Source: a virus. Taken from it: a stretch of 37,082 nucleotides of DNA. Shown piece after piece: positions 9,351-18,511 of the stretch; position 1 is the stretch's first letter, and each line of letters opens with the position of its first letter. A program made the translations under genes and the position numbers. Where the stretch lies: the UHGV virus genome UHGV-0194485; one strand, 5' to 3'. Under the pieces are notes generated by a model. That model was not told the DNA's origin, did no database searches, and was given only the letters and a program-made list of their open reading frames with translations.

Positions 9351-9692
9351 TCAGAGCTCGATGGAGTACACTCCGAACCCCTGGTCGAGGTAGTACAGGC
9401 ACTCAAGGGGTGCGGCCGCGTCGATGTCCTCTCCGACGACCTTCTCTCCGATCCTCGCGTACAGTCTTGCCGCGTCCTCGTTGTCCGGCGCGGCGTACAG
9501 TGCATCGAAGTCTCCGAGGATCTCGCGGATCGCGGCGGTTCCGATGCCCTGTCCGCGGAAGCCCTCGTCGACGTCGATGCGCTCCAGGTATGCGGATCCG
9601 TCGTCGAACTCCTGCACGATCGCGCGCACATGCTCGGCGACCTATGTCCTGAAGGTTCCCTCGTCCTCGTAGGTCTCGGTGGTGTAGTCCAT
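9351..9692 (-). CDS. GNAT-family acetyltransferase with in-frame TAG at codon 17 (candidate pyrrolysine)
   Basis: Motif A IDVDEGFRGQGIGT and motif B NEDAARLYARIG. ATG 9692 follows the promoter and RBS and is in frame through TAG 9642-9644. Confidence 0.75.
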
Positions 9693-9700
9693 GCTGTTCA

Positions 9701-9760
9701 CTCCCGGGGTTTCTCTTTTTCCCCTTAATACTACATAGTAGTATTACTATATAATACTTT
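9701..9760 (-). promoter_or_regulatory. early promoter plus 5' leader, copy 1
   Basis: 56/60 identical to 10935-10994. Minus strand has AAAGTATTATAT (BRE/TATA-like) and GGGAG RBS. Confidence 0.8.
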
Positions 9761-10926: not shown

Positions 10927-10934
10927 TTCAATCT

Positions 10935-10994
10935 CTCCCGGGGTTTCTCTTTTTCCCCTTAATACTACATAGTAATACCAATATATAATACTTT
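10935..10994 (-). promoter_or_regulatory. early promoter plus 5' leader, copy 2
   Basis: Direct repeat of 9701-9760; the first 40 bp are identical. Confidence 0.8.
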
Positions 10995-11651: not shown

Positions 11652-12872
11652 TCAGGCCTGGCCGTCCCCAGGGCCTTTCTTGCCCTTGTCCAGCCTCTTG
11701 AGCATCGCGACGCGGATGGCCTCGCGCTTCCAAATGGCCAGTGCGATCATCGCCAGAACGAGGGTTCCGAGGCAGATGGCGAGGACCTGTGTGGTCGGGT
11801 CGTCGAATCCGGTGGGTGCTGGCGCAGGCGTCGGCTCGAAGACGGCCTGGATGTCCAGGTCGGAGGTCACGGGCGCGGAGAAGTCGTGATCCCATGCCAC
11901 GAAATCGTAGCCCTCCTTGACGGGGATGGTCTTGGGCTCGGTGACGAGCTCTCCGTGCTTGACGGACTGTGCGGGCAGGATCTCCTCACCGTCGGCATAG
12001 AAATGGACGGTGTAGACGGCAGGCTCCCAGACCGCGACCAGAGTTGTGTCGGCAGCGACGGACTCCGCGAAGGCGGAGAGGTCGCTGATGACCTCGGTTC
12101 CGTCGGACCAGCCGAGGAAGGTGAATCCCTCCTTGGTCGGAGCTGAGGGCAGGACGATGCCGTAGACGGTGTGAGAGTAGGTTGTGGTGCCGTCGACGAT
12201 GAAGGTCAGGACGGGGTTGTGGGCGTAAACCGCGACATATGCCGCGTTGCCCGTGACGGTCGCCTCGACAGCGTCCGAGGCGATGACGACCTCGGTGGTG
12301 TTCTTGAGCGCCCATCCGACGAAGCACTGGCCATCGACGAACTCGATGACCTTTCCTGCTCCCTTGACCTCGGAGATGACAGGGAGGGCGACGGTCTGGC
12401 CGTAGCTCTTGGTGTTGTCCGAGGAGATGACGGTGCCGTCCTCATAGGTGAAGCTCACGGTGTAGACATCGGCCGTGATGTAGGCATAGAGGTTCACGCC
12501 TGTATCGACTCCGACGGAGTAGGTGGATCCTGCGGAGTAGACGTTGGTGGGTGCGGTGCCCTCGACGATCTCGGAGGTGGACCATCCGTGGAAGGTCTTT
12601 CCGGCAGGGATGGAGTATCCGAGAGTGGCGAGATCCTTGAGAGTGGTGGGGATCGCAGCTCCGGTGCCTGTGACCGTGTCGTTGACGACGGTGGTACCGA
12701 TGTGATATACGACGGTCGCAGTGACCGCCGGCTCGGTCGGGGTCCCCGAAGTTTCGGATCCGGAGTCCGCTGCGCCATCGCCCTCCGCGTAGGCATCGCC
12801 CATGACGGCGACACCTGCGAACGCGGCCAGAAGGACGACGCTCACGACCAAAAATGCGCATTTGGTGTTCAT
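11652..12872 (-). CDS. adhesin-like surface protein with InlB B-repeat (Listeria-Bacteroides/Flg_new) domains
   Basis: Signal peptide. Repeats GKTFHGWS, QCFVGWA, PTKEGFTFLGWS, PVKEGYDFVAWD. C-terminal TM helix plus basic tail. Confidence 0.85.
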   Translation of the reverse strand: MNTKCAFLVVSVVLLAAFAGVAVMGDAYAEGDGAADSGSETSGTPTEPAVTATVVYHIGTTVVNDTVTGTGAAIPTTLKDLATLGYSIPAGKTFHGWSTSEIVEGTAPTNVYSAGSTYSVGVDTGVNLYAYITADVYTVSFTYEDGTVISSDNTKSYGQTVALPVISEVKGAGKVIEFVDGQCFVGWALKNTTEVVIASDAVEATVTGNAAYVAVYAHNPVLTFIVDGTTTYSHTVYGIVLPSAPTKEGFTFLGWSDGTEVISDLSAFAESVAADTTLVAVWEPAVYTVHFYADGEEILPAQSVKHGELVTEPKTIPVKEGYDFVAWDHDFSAPVTSDLDIQAVFEPTPAPAPTGFDDPTTQVLAICLGTLVLAMIALAIWKREAIRVAMLKRLDKGKKGPGDGQA

Positions 12873-14757: not shown

Positions 14758-15174
14758 TTAGAGTCCCGGATACTCCGGGTAGTCGGCCTCCGCAGGGAAG
14801 CCGGGTTGCGTCTTGGTGGCACGGACGGCCATCTTATAGGTCCTCAATGTCTTCACACGATCCGACCAATCTTCGCCAGCGGCGATGTAGTCCTCGGCCT
14901 TGGCGATGTCAATGTCCGCTGCGTCCAGCTTCGCGGACCTCTCGATCCTGCGGAGCTCCGCGTCCCATACGACTCCGTCCGGGAGGATCCCGGCGCGTAT
15001 GAGATCATACTCCCCTGCTTCGAGGCGGTATTGCGTGTAGACGCATTCGGTGCGGCTCTCGCCACGCTCGTTTTCGACGGTCTCCATGCGTGGGTTGCGG
15101 TTGACGAGGACCATAGTCGGTCCAGTGACGATCTCCGGCGGTGCCGTCATGCTTCTGGCTTCGATGATCTCCAT
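14758..15174 (-). CDS. tail fibre assembly chaperone-like protein
   Basis: C-terminal LRTYKMAVR...QPGFPAEADYPEYP resembles the Tfa ending YR..L...GFP..I.WP..P. RBS GGAGG. Confidence 0.6.
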   Translation of the reverse strand: MEIIEARSMTAPPEIVTGPTMVLVNRNPRMETVENERGESRTECVYTQYRLEAGEYDLIRAGILPDGVVWDAELRRIERSAKLDAADIDIAKAEDYIAAGEDWSDRVKTLRTYKMAVRATKTQPGFPAEADYPEYPGL

Positions 15175-16181
15175 TTGAATTCCTCCATCAGTGGATAAAC
15201 TGTTTGCTTGCCCAGATAGTGGCCGTTGCACCACTCCAGGCATCCGTTGTATGCTGCGAGGACTCCACGATCATGCAGATCGGGTTCGCGGCCCTCGGCC
15301 CATTTGCGGCGTATGCGACTGCATGCGCGCTTGAGTCTTATCTTGGTTCTTTTGCGTAGGAGGCAGTGGTCGGGGTATATGACGTATCCGACCCAATCGA
15401 TCCCCTCGGTGACCGGACGGATGCACCAGTTGCCCTTGACCTCCAATCCCCAGGGTGCGATGATCTCCCCGATCTTGTGGAGCGCACGGCGGAGCCATGG
15501 TTTCGACCAGCCCAGGATGATGATGTCGTCCATGTAGCGTAGATACCAGCGACAGTGGAACGACTCTTTCATGTAGTGGTCCAGATCGGACAGGTAGAAA
15601 TTGGCGAAATATTGCGACGTGTAATTCCCGATCGGGAGGCCGCCATAGGGGTACTCGTAGATGATCCGTGCGCACAGGTCCAGAACGTCCTTGTCCTTGA
15701 CACGCGCTTCGATCTTGTCCATCATGACGTCCTTGTCGATGGACGGAAAGAATTTGCGGATGTCCAGCTTCAGATAGTACTTGGCTTGCGGGTCGCGGAG
15801 ATACTGCTTGAGTTTGGTCAGACCCTGATGCGCTCCCCTCTCCGGCAGTGCCGCGTAGGTCTGCGGGATCAGATTGCGCATGACCATGTCGTGAAGCACC
15901 TGCATCAGCGCCCAATGGATGATGCGGTCCGGATAATAGGGGAGGTCCGCCACCTCGCGGGTCTTCCCTTTCTCATGGATCTCGAACATCCTGTAAGGCG
16001 ACGTGTGGTATGTCCCTTCGACGAGCATCGTCTGAATGCTCTTGATGTAGAACTCCGGATCCTCATCGACCTTCCGCACGTCCGGACGATGCGTCTTGCC
16101 CTTGCGGGAGTTCTGATAGGCGCGCTTGATGTTCTCGTAGCTTACGAGCGTTCCCCAGATGTTTCCAAGTCTTTTCGTCAT
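15147..16181 (-). CDS. DGR reverse transcriptase
   Basis: 344 aa. Motifs PDRIIH, LKLDIRKFFPSID, GLPIGNYTSQYFAN (DGR-type IG...SQ), YMDD, GIDWVGY. No intron maturase or endonuclease extension. Confidence 0.96.
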   Translation of the reverse strand: MTKRLGNIWGTLVSYENIKRAYQNSRKGKTHRPDVRKVDEDPEFYIKSIQTMLVEGTYHTSPYRMFEIHEKGKTREVADLPYYPDRIIHWALMQVLHDMVMRNLIPQTYAALPERGAHQGLTKLKQYLRDPQAKYYLKLDIRKFFPSIDKDVMMDKIEARVKDKDVLDLCARIIYEYPYGGLPIGNYTSQYFANFYLSDLDHYMKESFHCRWYLRYMDDIIILGWSKPWLRRALHKIGEIIAPWGLEVKGNWCIRPVTEGIDWVGYVIYPDHCLLRKRTKIRLKRACSRIRRKWAEGREPDLHDRGVLAAYNGCLEWCNGHYLGKQTVYPLMEEFKWRSSKPEA

Positions 16182-16317
16182 TTTATCCGCCTTTGTGCTT
16201 TGAGCGTCCTTTCCCTTTCGGTACTAAACCGCTTTGTGCATGGTCTATTTCGGCGAGGGCCGAGGTCATGGGCGGATTGGATGGTGATGGTTTTACAGGA
16301 CCGATGGTCCTGTGGCC
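16182..16317 (-). ncRNA. DGR spacer (3' part of the TR-containing RNA)
   Basis: Non-coding gap between TR and RT. Perfect 8-bp hairpin at 16295-16313 and a CC-GAAA-GG tetraloop. Confidence 0.6.
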
Positions 16318-16439
16318 CAAAGGCCAGACGCGCCCCGTTGTTCGAGTTGGAGTTGGACAGGGAATTGTTCGCATTCAGGTAAGAGGGGCCGGCATTGCCA
16401 TTCGACACATTGTCCGAATTGCCCCCGACGTTACCGAGG
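16318..16439 (-). repeat. DGR template repeat (TR)
   Basis: 122 bp, ungapped match to VR. 26 sense-strand adenines lie in 12 AAY codons plus GAC and TAC. Confidence 0.97.
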
Positions 16440-16577
16440 AACCCCCGAGGTACGCGTCACTTCCGCTCAGACCTGTCCTCCGTTTCCGGATGGACTGTGA
16501 TGGATGACGGGGCTGGCGCCCCGATGATGGTTTAAGGGGTTTGGATAGGAGGTTGCTTTAGTCGCGCGAGGACGCGC

Positions 16578-18281
16578 TCACAGGTCGAAGACAAAGGCCA
16601 GACGCGCCCCGAAGTCCGAGTTGGAGTAGGACAGGGAAGCGTACGCAGACAGGAAAGAGGGGCCGGCACTGCCATCCGACACATTGCCCGAAGCGCCCCC
16701 GACGCGACCGAGGTATGTTCCATTGGCCGACCATAGATAGTCGCACTGATACGTCGAACTCGATCCGCCGACGTTGTCTGGCATGCCCCACCATGGTCCC
16801 GTCGTTTTCGCGCCCTTCTGCCATCCCGAAATTGTGACGAAAGATGTGTTGACCTTGTTGTTCACATCATCCGTAGGCTTGGAGTTCTGTCCCGCATACA
16901 TCTTTCCCGAGATGTTGACGAAATCGTCGATGAACTCGAATTTGTATCCCCACGGGTTTTCGATCAGTGCCTTGACACTGTGCGAAGCGTCCGCACTCGC
17001 GGCGGTGCATCCTGCCCAGAGTCCCATCTTGTTGCATAGACCTTGGCCTGTCGATCCGTTGTACGGAAACCCGCCCTGTCCGATGGCACGTTGTCCGTTG
17101 AAATCCTTGGCTGCGAACAGGCATAGATGCCACCAATCTCTCCACTGATGGAAATTCCAAACCATCGCTTTCCCGTTTTTCACGGTGTTCGCAGCTGCAT
17201 AGTTGCGGAAGGTCGAACGGATGTATCCTCCGGACGATGCCTTGCCGGATAGGGACATCAGCTTGGAGCCGTTGACGTATCCCTCGTATACCCCGATCGC
17301 TTCGTACTCGTATGTGTGACCGTCGATGGTCGCTCCATAAGCCACTCCCGACTTCGCGGTATCTCCGATCGTCACGGAGTTGGATGCGCCTTTGCGATAT
17401 AGTGCAGGGAAGCAGAACATGGTGTTCTCGGTCGTGATGGCCGAGGATCCGCTCGCATCGATCCACTTCTTGGAGGTCACATTCCACACGGAGATCACCT
17501 GCGTCAGATCCTTCGGATTGAGGCGCTGATGGAGGTTTCCTGCAGAATCGAATGTCGCGTAGAAGCATTTGTTCAGATACGGGTTGGATGATGATCCATC
17601 CTCATTCATGTCCCATGAGCCGACGGTCTGACACGCTCCCAATGCGCTCGGAGGCGAACCGACCGGCGTGAAACCTGCACAATCGCCGGAGTAGGTCAAA
17701 CAACCCTTGGGGTCCGTCGCGAACGTGGACGCGTTGAATGCCATGCTGAACACGATCGATTTTCCGACCGTGATGCTTTGAATCAGACGGTCGATCGTGA
17801 CAGTGGCCGAGGCGCCGTTTGCCGTGAATGTCCAGACGGAGCCGGTGGCCAATCCGCTGAATTGGGCCAATCCGTTGCTGTCCGCGACGACCGACATGGA
17901 GTTGGACCCGGAGGTTCCGGTGACCGTCGTTCCTGCTTCGGTGTAGACTTGCACCACCGTCTTGATGTCCGGATACTGGAAAAGGTCGAAGTAGACCCAT
18001 ACGACGCCCGTCGATGTCGCGGCGACTGTCTGCGGATCGTCGTTGTAGTAGCTGCCCTGGTGCGTCAACGTGACCGTATAGGTCAATCCCGAGTCCACGA
18101 GCAGGTCAGCTCTTCCGGTGCTGTCCGCCGTGGCCGTGAAACTCTTTCCGGTCGCGGTGACCGTCCACGATGCCGTCCCCAGATTGAGGCGGTCGATGGT
18201 GTTGATCGACAGATGTAGCAAACATTTCCCGGCGGGGACGGTCTTGTTGCCGCCCCCATAGAACGCTCCGACGATTGTCAT
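16578..18281 (-). CDS. DGR target: tail fibre / receptor-binding protein with C-terminal CLec-like (FGE/Mtd-type) domain
   Basis: 567 aa from ATG 18281. Beta-rich N-terminal half. IENPWGYKFEFID and terminal GARLAF motifs. Confidence 0.9.
   Translation of the reverse strand: MTIVGAFYGGGNKTVPAGKCLLHLSINTIDRLNLGTASWTVTATGKSFTATADSTGRADLLVDSGLTYTVTLTHQGSYYNDDPQTVAATSTGVVWVYFDLFQYPDIKTVVQVYTEAGTTVTGTSGSNSMSVVADSNGLAQFSGLATGSVWTFTANGASATVTIDRLIQSITVGKSIVFSMAFNASTFATDPKGCLTYSGDCAGFTPVGSPPSALGACQTVGSWDMNEDGSSSNPYLNKCFYATFDSAGNLHQRLNPKDLTQVISVWNVTSKKWIDASGSSAITTENTMFCFPALYRKGASNSVTIGDTAKSGVAYGATIDGHTYEYEAIGVYEGYVNGSKLMSLSGKASSGGYIRSTFRNYAAANTVKNGKAMVWNFHQWRDWWHLCLFAAKDFNGQRAIGQGGFPYNGSTGQGLCNKMGLWAGCTAASADASHSVKALIENPWGYKFEFIDDFVNISGKMYAGQNSKPTDDVNNKVNTSFVTISGWQKGAKTTGPWWGMPDNVGGSSSTYQCDYLWSANGTYLGRVGGASGNVSDGSAGPSFLSAYASLSYSNSDFGARLAFVFDL
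16592..16713 (-). repeat. DGR variable repeat (VR)
   Basis: 105/122 identical to TR, and all 17 differences are at TR adenines. Located at the 3' end of the tail-fibre gene. Confidence 0.97.
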
Positions 18282-18511
18282 TCGACGACCTCCGTCCAGT
18301 CGTCCATGAGCATGTCCGTTTGGCTGGCCAACCAGGGAACCAATTCGCCCCCGACGGTCCTCATATAGATGAACGGCAGGAACGGCGTACCGTCCTCCGA
18401 CTCGACGCCGGGTTGGAGGCTGATCCACATCCTCTTTCCGTTCCATCCGTCTCTCGCGTATCTTTTCTCCGGAGTCTTCTTCAGACTCTCTAAAACCTCT
18501 CCGAAATTCAT
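18278..18511 (-). CDS. DUF2829 / Tad2-like anti-defence sponge protein
   Basis: MNFGEVLESLK...ARDGWNGKRMWI...PFIYMRT...VPWLASQTDMLMDDW. Confidence 0.82.
   Translation of the reverse strand: MNFGEVLESLKKTPEKRYARDGWNGKRMWISLQPGVESEDGTPFLPFIYMRTVGGELVPWLASQTDMLMDDWTEVVE

Follow-up and report, generated by a model that had tools for sequence, protein, structure and literature searches.

Probable diversification of a predicted lectin-fold tail protein by an Avd-less diversity-generating retroelement of a likely methanogen virus

The window analysed here, the complete 37,082-nucleotide stretch of virus genome UHGV-0194485, is nearly the whole genome of a tailed virus, with genes for a terminase, an SPP1-type portal, head, tail and tape measure proteins, an integrase and Erf. 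Its minus strand carries a diversity-generating retroelement (DGR). The order is a target gene (18281-16578) with the variable repeat (VR) at its end, a 152-bp gap, the template repeat (TR), a 136-bp spacer, a reverse transcriptase (RT) gene (16181-15147) and a gene resembling tail chaperones. The closest deposited relative is Caudoviricetes sp. vir215 (NC_092586.1 / BK063676.1), which comes from a gut metagenome and has Methanomassiliicoccales as its recorded host. We are confident that the element is an intact DGR lacking the accessory gene avd, that it resides in a likely temperate Methanomassiliicoccales virus, and that RNA-primed, adenine-mutagenic copying likely diversifies a predicted lectin-fold tail protein and so varies host attachment. 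The core features are:

16578-18281, minus strand: DGR target, encoding 567 aa; matches PHROG 5302 (tail protein, E 4e-23) and, at 95.8%, the vir215 tail protein
16592-16713, minus strand: VR, codons 524-563 with 14 variable residues, from TR alignment, strain comparison and column entropy
16592-16611, minus strand: adenine-free, G/C-rich 3' end of VR, resembling an initiation of mutagenic homing (IMH) site; conserved in related TR/VR pairs
16318-16439, minus strand: TR with 26 adenines, from VR alignment; 2-3 differences to close strains
15147-16181, minus strand: DGR reverse transcriptase, 344 aa, from Pfam RVT_1, PHROG 1423 (E 9e-111) and the tree described below

TR and VR align without gaps over 122 bp at an offset of 274. 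Every one of the 17 mismatches falls on an adenine of TR: 7 are A>G, 6 are A>T and 4 are A>C. The probability that 17 random mismatches would all land on the 26 adenines is 1.2e-14. These adenines are found in 12 AAY codons, one GAC and one TAC, and no substitution can reach a stop codon. Twelve of the 14 variable residues differ between TR and VR, and the protein space of the VR is 2.08e15. The 3'-terminal 20 bases common to both repeats are free of adenine, while the sequence 3' of the G/C-rich end of VR differs from that 3' of TR. An IMH-like end, a differing IMH* and a downstream inverted repeat are present at the sequence level, the hairpin being atypically short. We recomputed every figure that the original prediction had given for the repeats, including its estimate of about 2e15 proteins, and all of them hold. 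A window-wide scan for repeats of at least 45 bp differing only at adenines gave no other pair with more than two mismatches, and hence no second target.

The RT gene is an open frame in which the LPIGNYTSQ and YMDD motifs are intact, as predicted. It scores 108.6 bits against a group II intron model (cut-off 300) and 54.9 bits against the retron_St85 model (cut-off 235). We built a tree of 31 rows that includes BPP-1 Brt and four group II intron RTs, with three distant loci (L012-L014) used for this purpose only; retron RTs were not among the rows. The window RT groups with Brt and other phage DGR RTs, and a 100/100 branch separates it from the four group II RTs. The original prediction had named a grouping with group II introns as an outcome that would speak against a DGR; the RT is on the DGR side. 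A group II intron was rejected on the score, the separation in the tree and the lack of any Rfam match in the window, and a retron on the retron_St85 score. Within the tree, the RT belongs to a 99/98 methanogen-virus clade of 13 rows, 10 of which are the window, related viruses or methanogen genomes, two are proteins from methanogen metagenome-assembled genomes (MAGs) and one is unnamed. Its nearest relatives outside this clade are Firmicutes-phage and crAss RTs, a position that fits acquisition from gut bacterial phages without proving it. Two related RTs (L026:634 onward; G168:C99:2929-3957) contain an in-frame TAG, possibly read as pyrrolysine.

No avd gene was found. The gap between VR and TR holds no open reading frame (ORF) of Avd size, none of the window proteins scanned matches the Avd family, and the bAvd family is absent from all three related virus records. 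Among 261 genomes of the host order bAvd occurs in one, and the 26 genomes with a related RT are all without it; the sole matches are two copies of equal score lying 38.7 kb apart (G181:C1:49010-49312 and 87669-87971). The TR-RT core without an accessory gene has the layout of architecture A, described by Wu et al. (2018) for 75 of 372 DGRs, with Lineage 3 lacking avd (PMC5758913). A BPP-1-type DGR (architecture B) was rejected, as neither an ORF of Avd size nor a family match is present. The nearest outside relatives of the window RT are architecture A or Lineage 3 phage RTs (cr52_1, p00, FP_Epona, Perkons), a likeness that derives from the 31-row tree rather than from the Wu reference set and that leaves the RT in its own clade. 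In crAss cr52_1, FP_Epona and Perkons the order is likewise target-TR-RT, and the interval from target to RT contains no annotated gene; hankyphage p00 has one 64-codon ORF there.

The window and BPP-1 (mtd-avd-TR-brt) have in common the adenine-only differences, the AAY codons, a C-terminal C-type lectin (CLec) domain, a G/C end, a downstream inverted repeat and a spacer of about 140 nt. The window differs in lacking avd, in its RT (31% identical), in its 5-bp TCCT hairpin, in having 14 variable residues, in its likely archaeal host and in a pilin-like N-terminus where BPP-1 has a beta-prism. The original prediction had assigned the element to the BPP-1 mechanism. Adenine-only TR-to-VR rewriting stands; Avd does not, nor does the BPP-1 form of the hairpin after VR, which here is shorter and has another loop.

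We predicted the RNA structure from an alignment of 15 relatives. Its elements are listed with the inverted repeat behind the target and the gene next to the RT:

16564-16577, minus strand: inverted repeat directly after the target stop, a putative target hairpin or cruciform with a 5-bp G/C stem and TCCT loop
16462-16474, minus strand: 5' strand of a predicted long-range helix resembling the BPP-1 "cPRT Stop", from alignment-based prediction and covariation
16295-16313, minus strand: stem-loop directly after TR, at the position of the BPP-1 Avd-binding stem-loop, predicted in relatives
16277-16281, minus strand: candidate primer strand pairing with 16316-16320; the invariant A16277 is the predicted cis-priming base
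16247-16276, minus strand: 3' strand of the helix (16263-16276), behind which come a 4-bp stem-loop (16251-16262) and conserved adenines; covariation
16204-16232, minus strand: distal spacer stem, a candidate RT-binding element from the alignment-based prediction
14758-15177, minus strand: tail-fibre assembly chaperone-like gene; PF16778 (E 7.5e-5, below cut-off) and PHROG 8746

The 13-bp helix joins the leader (16474-16462) to the spacer (16276-16263). Eight of its 13 pairs change on both sides, and 92.8% of cells are paired. For the whole 34-pair structure, none of 500 shuffles reaches the observed pairing, and no slide does so either. Together with the stem-loop and the adenines, the predicted helix matches the "cPRT Stop" layout of BPP-1 described in a cryo-EM preprint (10.1101/2023.10.23.563531), whose conservation survey, as far as it is set out there, covers DGRs with Avd only. 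A narrow literature search found no RNA-structure survey of Avd-less DGRs. A stem-loop at the Avd-binding position is predicted for 15 of 17 relatives, although its sequence varies; for 13 of the 17, no more than 10 of 200 shuffled sequences fold equally well. The primer duplex is weaker than the main helix, with 69% of cells paired and three of five pairs covarying, and A16277 is a candidate priming base that would pair with the TR end. The stem of the target hairpin is identical in all 14 covering sequences and covaries in the G130, G131, G134 and G163 proviruses, where both arms are changed.

Three points weigh against this picture. The shuffle control is lenient, because one and the same alignment served both to predict the structure and to count its pairs. 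The primer duplex fits 10 of 15 sequences in one register, and a subgroup needs a 2-nt shift. The hairpin, with its 5 bp and TCCT loop, is unlike the phage DGR hairpins described with 7-10 bp stems and GRNA loops (PMC3240598). We predict that BPP-1-type priming structures are kept in the RNA of this cassette; the original prediction had overlooked both these and the lack of an Avd gene.

These elements suggest the following mechanism. RNA from about 16500 to 16182 would fold such that the leader pairs with the spacer and encloses TR, a prediction that the covariation supports. By analogy with BPP-1, the RT would prime in cis near A16277 and copy TR with errors at adenines. The G/C end and the hairpin would then direct the cDNA to VR, whose sequence it would replace; the strain comparison below makes the TR-to-VR outcome visible, and the integration step is presumed. 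The 14 CLec residues, which vary between strains, would form a receptor-binding site and may permit receptor switching.

We propose tentatively, as a joint claim with less than even chances, that these viruses carry a minimal two-component DGR, in which the RT needs no accessory protein, just an RNA that primes itself and has the complete BPP-1 architecture, and that the cassette passes between Methanomassiliicoccales viruses of unrelated types, the 37-kb vir215-like and the 83-kb vir335-like. As judged from gene content, the cassette is patchy and common to unrelated virus types. One contig, L010 (G006:C1, 83.7 kb), belongs to a vir335-like virus with the same DGR (RT 76%); the deposited vir335 has no RT match.

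It is also conceivable, though doubtful, that a viral or host protein that has escaped recognition replaces Avd in the same DGR and binds the stem-loop at 16295-16313. The retention of this stem-loop in most relatives favours such a substitute, as does the requirement of BPP-1 for Avd (PMC5758913). The chaperone-like gene, which overlaps the RT end and is linked to the RT in all methanogen-virus relatives, also speaks for it, but this gene matches tail chaperone families, and the distribution of bAvd and the scan of the window proteins offer no such protein.

The target gene starts at ATG 18281, the start also used in the vir215 annotation; in all six proteins compared from viral relatives, the alignment begins at residue 1-3 wherever the locus extends that far. 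The protein is predicted to comprise two N-terminal beta-sandwiches (about residues 19-171) and a C-terminal FGE-type CLec domain that bears the VR at its end. The N-terminal model (residues 1-177) shows two domains resembling SpaA pilin domains. The AlphaFold model of residues 174-567, built with 90 sequences, has a pLDDT (predicted local distance difference test) of 97. Its best match is TaqVP of a Thermus aquaticus prophage (PDB 5vf4; Foldseek E 1.8e-9; VIA Z 24.2, root-mean-square deviation 3.1 over 261 residues). TvpA ranks second in VIA at Z 12.1, followed by Mtd and FGE-type proteins, and the best BFVD matches of the target are phage tail collar or fibre proteins. The CLec fold expected in the original prediction is thus borne out by the model. 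TaqVP shares the FGE-type CLec fold and a 40-residue C-terminal VR; it differs in sequence (17% identity), in having nine variable residues rather than 14 and in being a single domain. Its variable residues are described as exposed and forming a putative binding site (PMC6328139). For the window protein and its 30 nearest homologues, mean column entropy is 2.76 bits at the 14 variable sites versus 0.43 at other VR sites. Counting against us here, clustering of the 14 residues in space is presumed by analogy with TaqVP. By fold and gene position the target is a tail-module protein; the more specific label of tail fibre, used in the original prediction, does not follow from pilin/Ig-like domains and a CLec domain.

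Binding of gut mucus, glycans or another surface, instead of a switch of entry receptor, is an unlikely role for the variable domain. It would agree with the pilin/Ig-like domains at the N-terminus and with the Ig-like and Flg_new proteins that the virus also encodes. It would further agree with a host adhesin of genome G131 that carries a non-variable homologue of the CLec domain. Against it, the variation at 14 sites fits an arms race, the target gene closes the tail module and adjoins a tail chaperone gene, and the prototype Mtd binds the host receptor. The adhesin itself (3090 aa, Flg_new repeats; L111:6957-16229, G131:C1:1091957-1101229) is encoded 6 kb from a provirus and matches target residues 237-467 at 29% (E 8e-20). 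We looked for VR-like DNA in this adhesin gene and found none. CLec domains may have been exchanged between host adhesins and viral tails.

We compared the element with close strains to assess its past activity. The VR differs from those of loci L001 and L002 at 16.4% of sites each (20/122), 19 of the 20 being TR adenines in both cases. TR differs by 2.5% and 1.6% (3 and 2 sites), and the rest of the target by 2.3% and 9.3%, respectively. The VR of vir215 shows 18 differences, 17 of them at TR adenines. Five close genomes (the window, L001, L002, vir215 and L020) have five distinct VRs; any one of the 14 sites is occupied by 2-5 different residues among them. Pooling 18 related TR/VR pairs, some of them near-duplicates, we found 310 of 484 TR adenines changed versus 5 of 1604 other bases; A>G is commonest (166), followed by A>T (83) and A>C (61). 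This count excludes L011 and L024, which are truncated, as well as G130 and G163, whose anchor motif is different, and L009 and L025 have no TR/VR pair owing to contig ends. Differences between the window TR and those of 17 relatives at bases other than adenine are mirrored in the VR of the same genome in 159 of 159 cases, counts that are not independent. Adenine-restricted changes and this own-genome mirroring indicate repeated TR-to-VR copying over the history of the clade. As read from these comparisons, 14 codons undergo adenine-specific, template-directed rewriting. The element is historically active, with an almost fixed TR and differing VRs among close strains, in line with the original prediction of an intact and active DGR.

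The templates differ between strains at five sites, two of them at bases other than adenine. Erosion of the template by self-targeting was rejected as a general property: deviations from the majority base at codon positions 1-2 number 13/390 at adenines and 40/765 elsewhere (p = 0.18). L011, whose TR is short of several adenines, and L006 look individually eroded. In L001, TR equals VR over the first 26 bp, changed codons included, by conversion or as an assembly artefact.

That the element is frozen in this genome and its mismatches are historical is improbable. It would account for L006, where the RT has a deletion (residues 50-127) and the VR is nearly homogenised with only six mismatches. 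Current variation is likewise not seen in reads: three sequencing runs contain 5-7% of window words and yielded just scattered 151-bp contigs, none on the VR. These runs are uninformative on activity within the sample, because no contig covers the VR. An intact RT frame, a VR that carries the TR-specific alleles of its own genome and a different VR in every close strain speak for an element that has kept working.

The likely host is a Methanomassiliicoccales gut methanogen, as judged from genome comparison, and the virus is likely temperate. The window matches vir215 with 92% identity over 85% of its length, and 64 of the 71 vir215 proteins are matched. The two share gene order, RT (96.8%), target, the 274-bp offset, the absence of avd and a TR with two differences; they differ in the VR and in a divergent terminase, tape measure and one baseplate gene. 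At a rough intergenomic similarity of 78% they are probably separate species of the same genus, by the usual thresholds. The genome G131, a 1.66-Mb single-contig chromosome with mcrA and PylS and no FwdA, contains a provirus whose head, tail and DGR genes are those of the window virus. The cassette of this provirus (RT 67%) has 21 mismatches, all at adenines, and similar cassettes occur in G130, G134 and G163. On one side the provirus is flanked by serS and on the other by genes for archaeal uL16, Dph2 and methanogenesis marker 4; the presence of this related provirus and its cassette in a methanogen chromosome supports an archaeal host. RT homologues are also named from Methanomethylophilaceae and Thermoplasmata MAGs. 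Four TATA-like boxes precede window genes, a sigma-70 promoter scan of the window gave chance level, and the window contains no tRNA genes. Just 1 of the 64 window genes ends in TAG. Such rarity would be expected if the host uses pyrrolysine, although TGA dominates at this GC content anyway.

Several observations qualify this host assignment. The records of close loci L007, L011 and L010 are titled Lachnospiraceae or Bacteroidaceae. The matching genomes titled Lachnospiraceae, Methanomicrobiales and Bacteroidaceae all have mcrA (one partial) and PylS without FwdA, which we take to be the Methanomassiliicoccales pattern, and their order is deduced from these marker genes. DNA searches of the 261 genomes revealed no spacers of clustered regularly interspaced short palindromic repeats (CRISPR), a search that is insensitive because only two candidates per genome were scored; none of ten short-hit loci checked has a CRISPR array. 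Short-word BLAST against the G130 and G131 flanks gave no attachment (att) core and hence no attB link. The spacer and attB searches called for in the original prediction thus returned no match, and its archaeal host is supported indirectly, by the recorded host of vir215 and by the provirus with archaeal flanks. Genomes G004, G005 and G006 (loci L007, L008, L010, L011) carry titles that look wrong given mcrA and PylS; G005 has eight DGR-type RT matches and G004 five.

A gut bacterium (Firmicutes or Bacteroidota) as host, suggested by SPP1-like head genes, the nearest outside RTs from Firmicutes phages and the titles of G004 and G006, is scarcely credible and already largely refuted, since G004 and G006 hold mcrA (partial in G006) and PylS and are listed in the order of G005, L010 matches vir335 with its recorded host Methanomassiliicoccales, the provirus flanks are archaeal and RT homologues come from methanogen-lineage MAGs.

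Directly upstream of the target, outside the DGR, is a further gene:

18278-18511, minus strand: Tad2-like gene (PF11195, E 3e-23)

It belongs to a Thoeris anti-defence family and here occurs in an archaeal virus. At this site it is present only in the close strains L001, L002 and vir215, and it is not at this site in L003, L006, L007 and L008. Elsewhere in the window, an acetyltransferase-like gene (9351-9692, minus strand) has an in-frame TAG at 9644, which is either a nonsense change or a codon read through as pyrrolysine; vir215, L001 and L002 encode Tyr at this position. The adjoining 46 bp (9596-9641) are inverted in vir215. A 63-bp AT-rich repeat near the integrase (9698-9760 and 10932-10994, 92% identical, each with an internal inverted repeat) may be a promoter or operator. 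The gene for a membrane-anchored Flg_new adhesin (11652-12872, minus strand) has given way in L001, a strain with 96% identity elsewhere, to a version with 31% identity.

The element is a genuine DGR and belongs to a known class; the virus that carries it is a sister of a methanogen virus already deposited. It is not new, because the same cassette is deposited in vir215; that record annotates the RT and the tail protein, without TR or VR, and the novelty claimed in the original prediction for an archaeal-virus DGR is lost. The source paper of vir215, Medvedeva et al. 2023, reportedly describes DGR enrichment in gut methanogen viruses, and its text or supplements may already describe this element. 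A literature search for vir215 by name found no relevant paper, and the word "retroelement" is absent from the text of PMC11375127 and PMC9800368. Archaeal-virus tail-protein DGRs have been published before, as for ANMV-1 (Paul et al. 2015, PMC4372165), also with a predicted CLec tail protein; compared by description only, it differs in its Avd gene, 21 variable codons and marine methane-seep origin.

The discovery is modest, and its value is that of a clean test case for priming and copying in Avd-less DGRs, for which Wu et al., in the part of their account cited here, only suggest a distinct variant (PMC5758913). Covariation here maps the RNA elements and a candidate priming base of such a DGR. 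Since 26 of the 261 host-order genomes contain a related RT, variation driven by DGRs is probably common in these gut-methanogen viruses. The VR points at a receptor on cells that in M. alvi are described as having neither a wall nor an S-layer (PMC10673518). Receptor switching and a host without a wall, both put forward in the original prediction, are inferences. Should the tentative two-component proposal hold, an integrated copy in a closed methanogen chromosome would turn the element into the first archaeal-virus DGR accessible to direct experiment.

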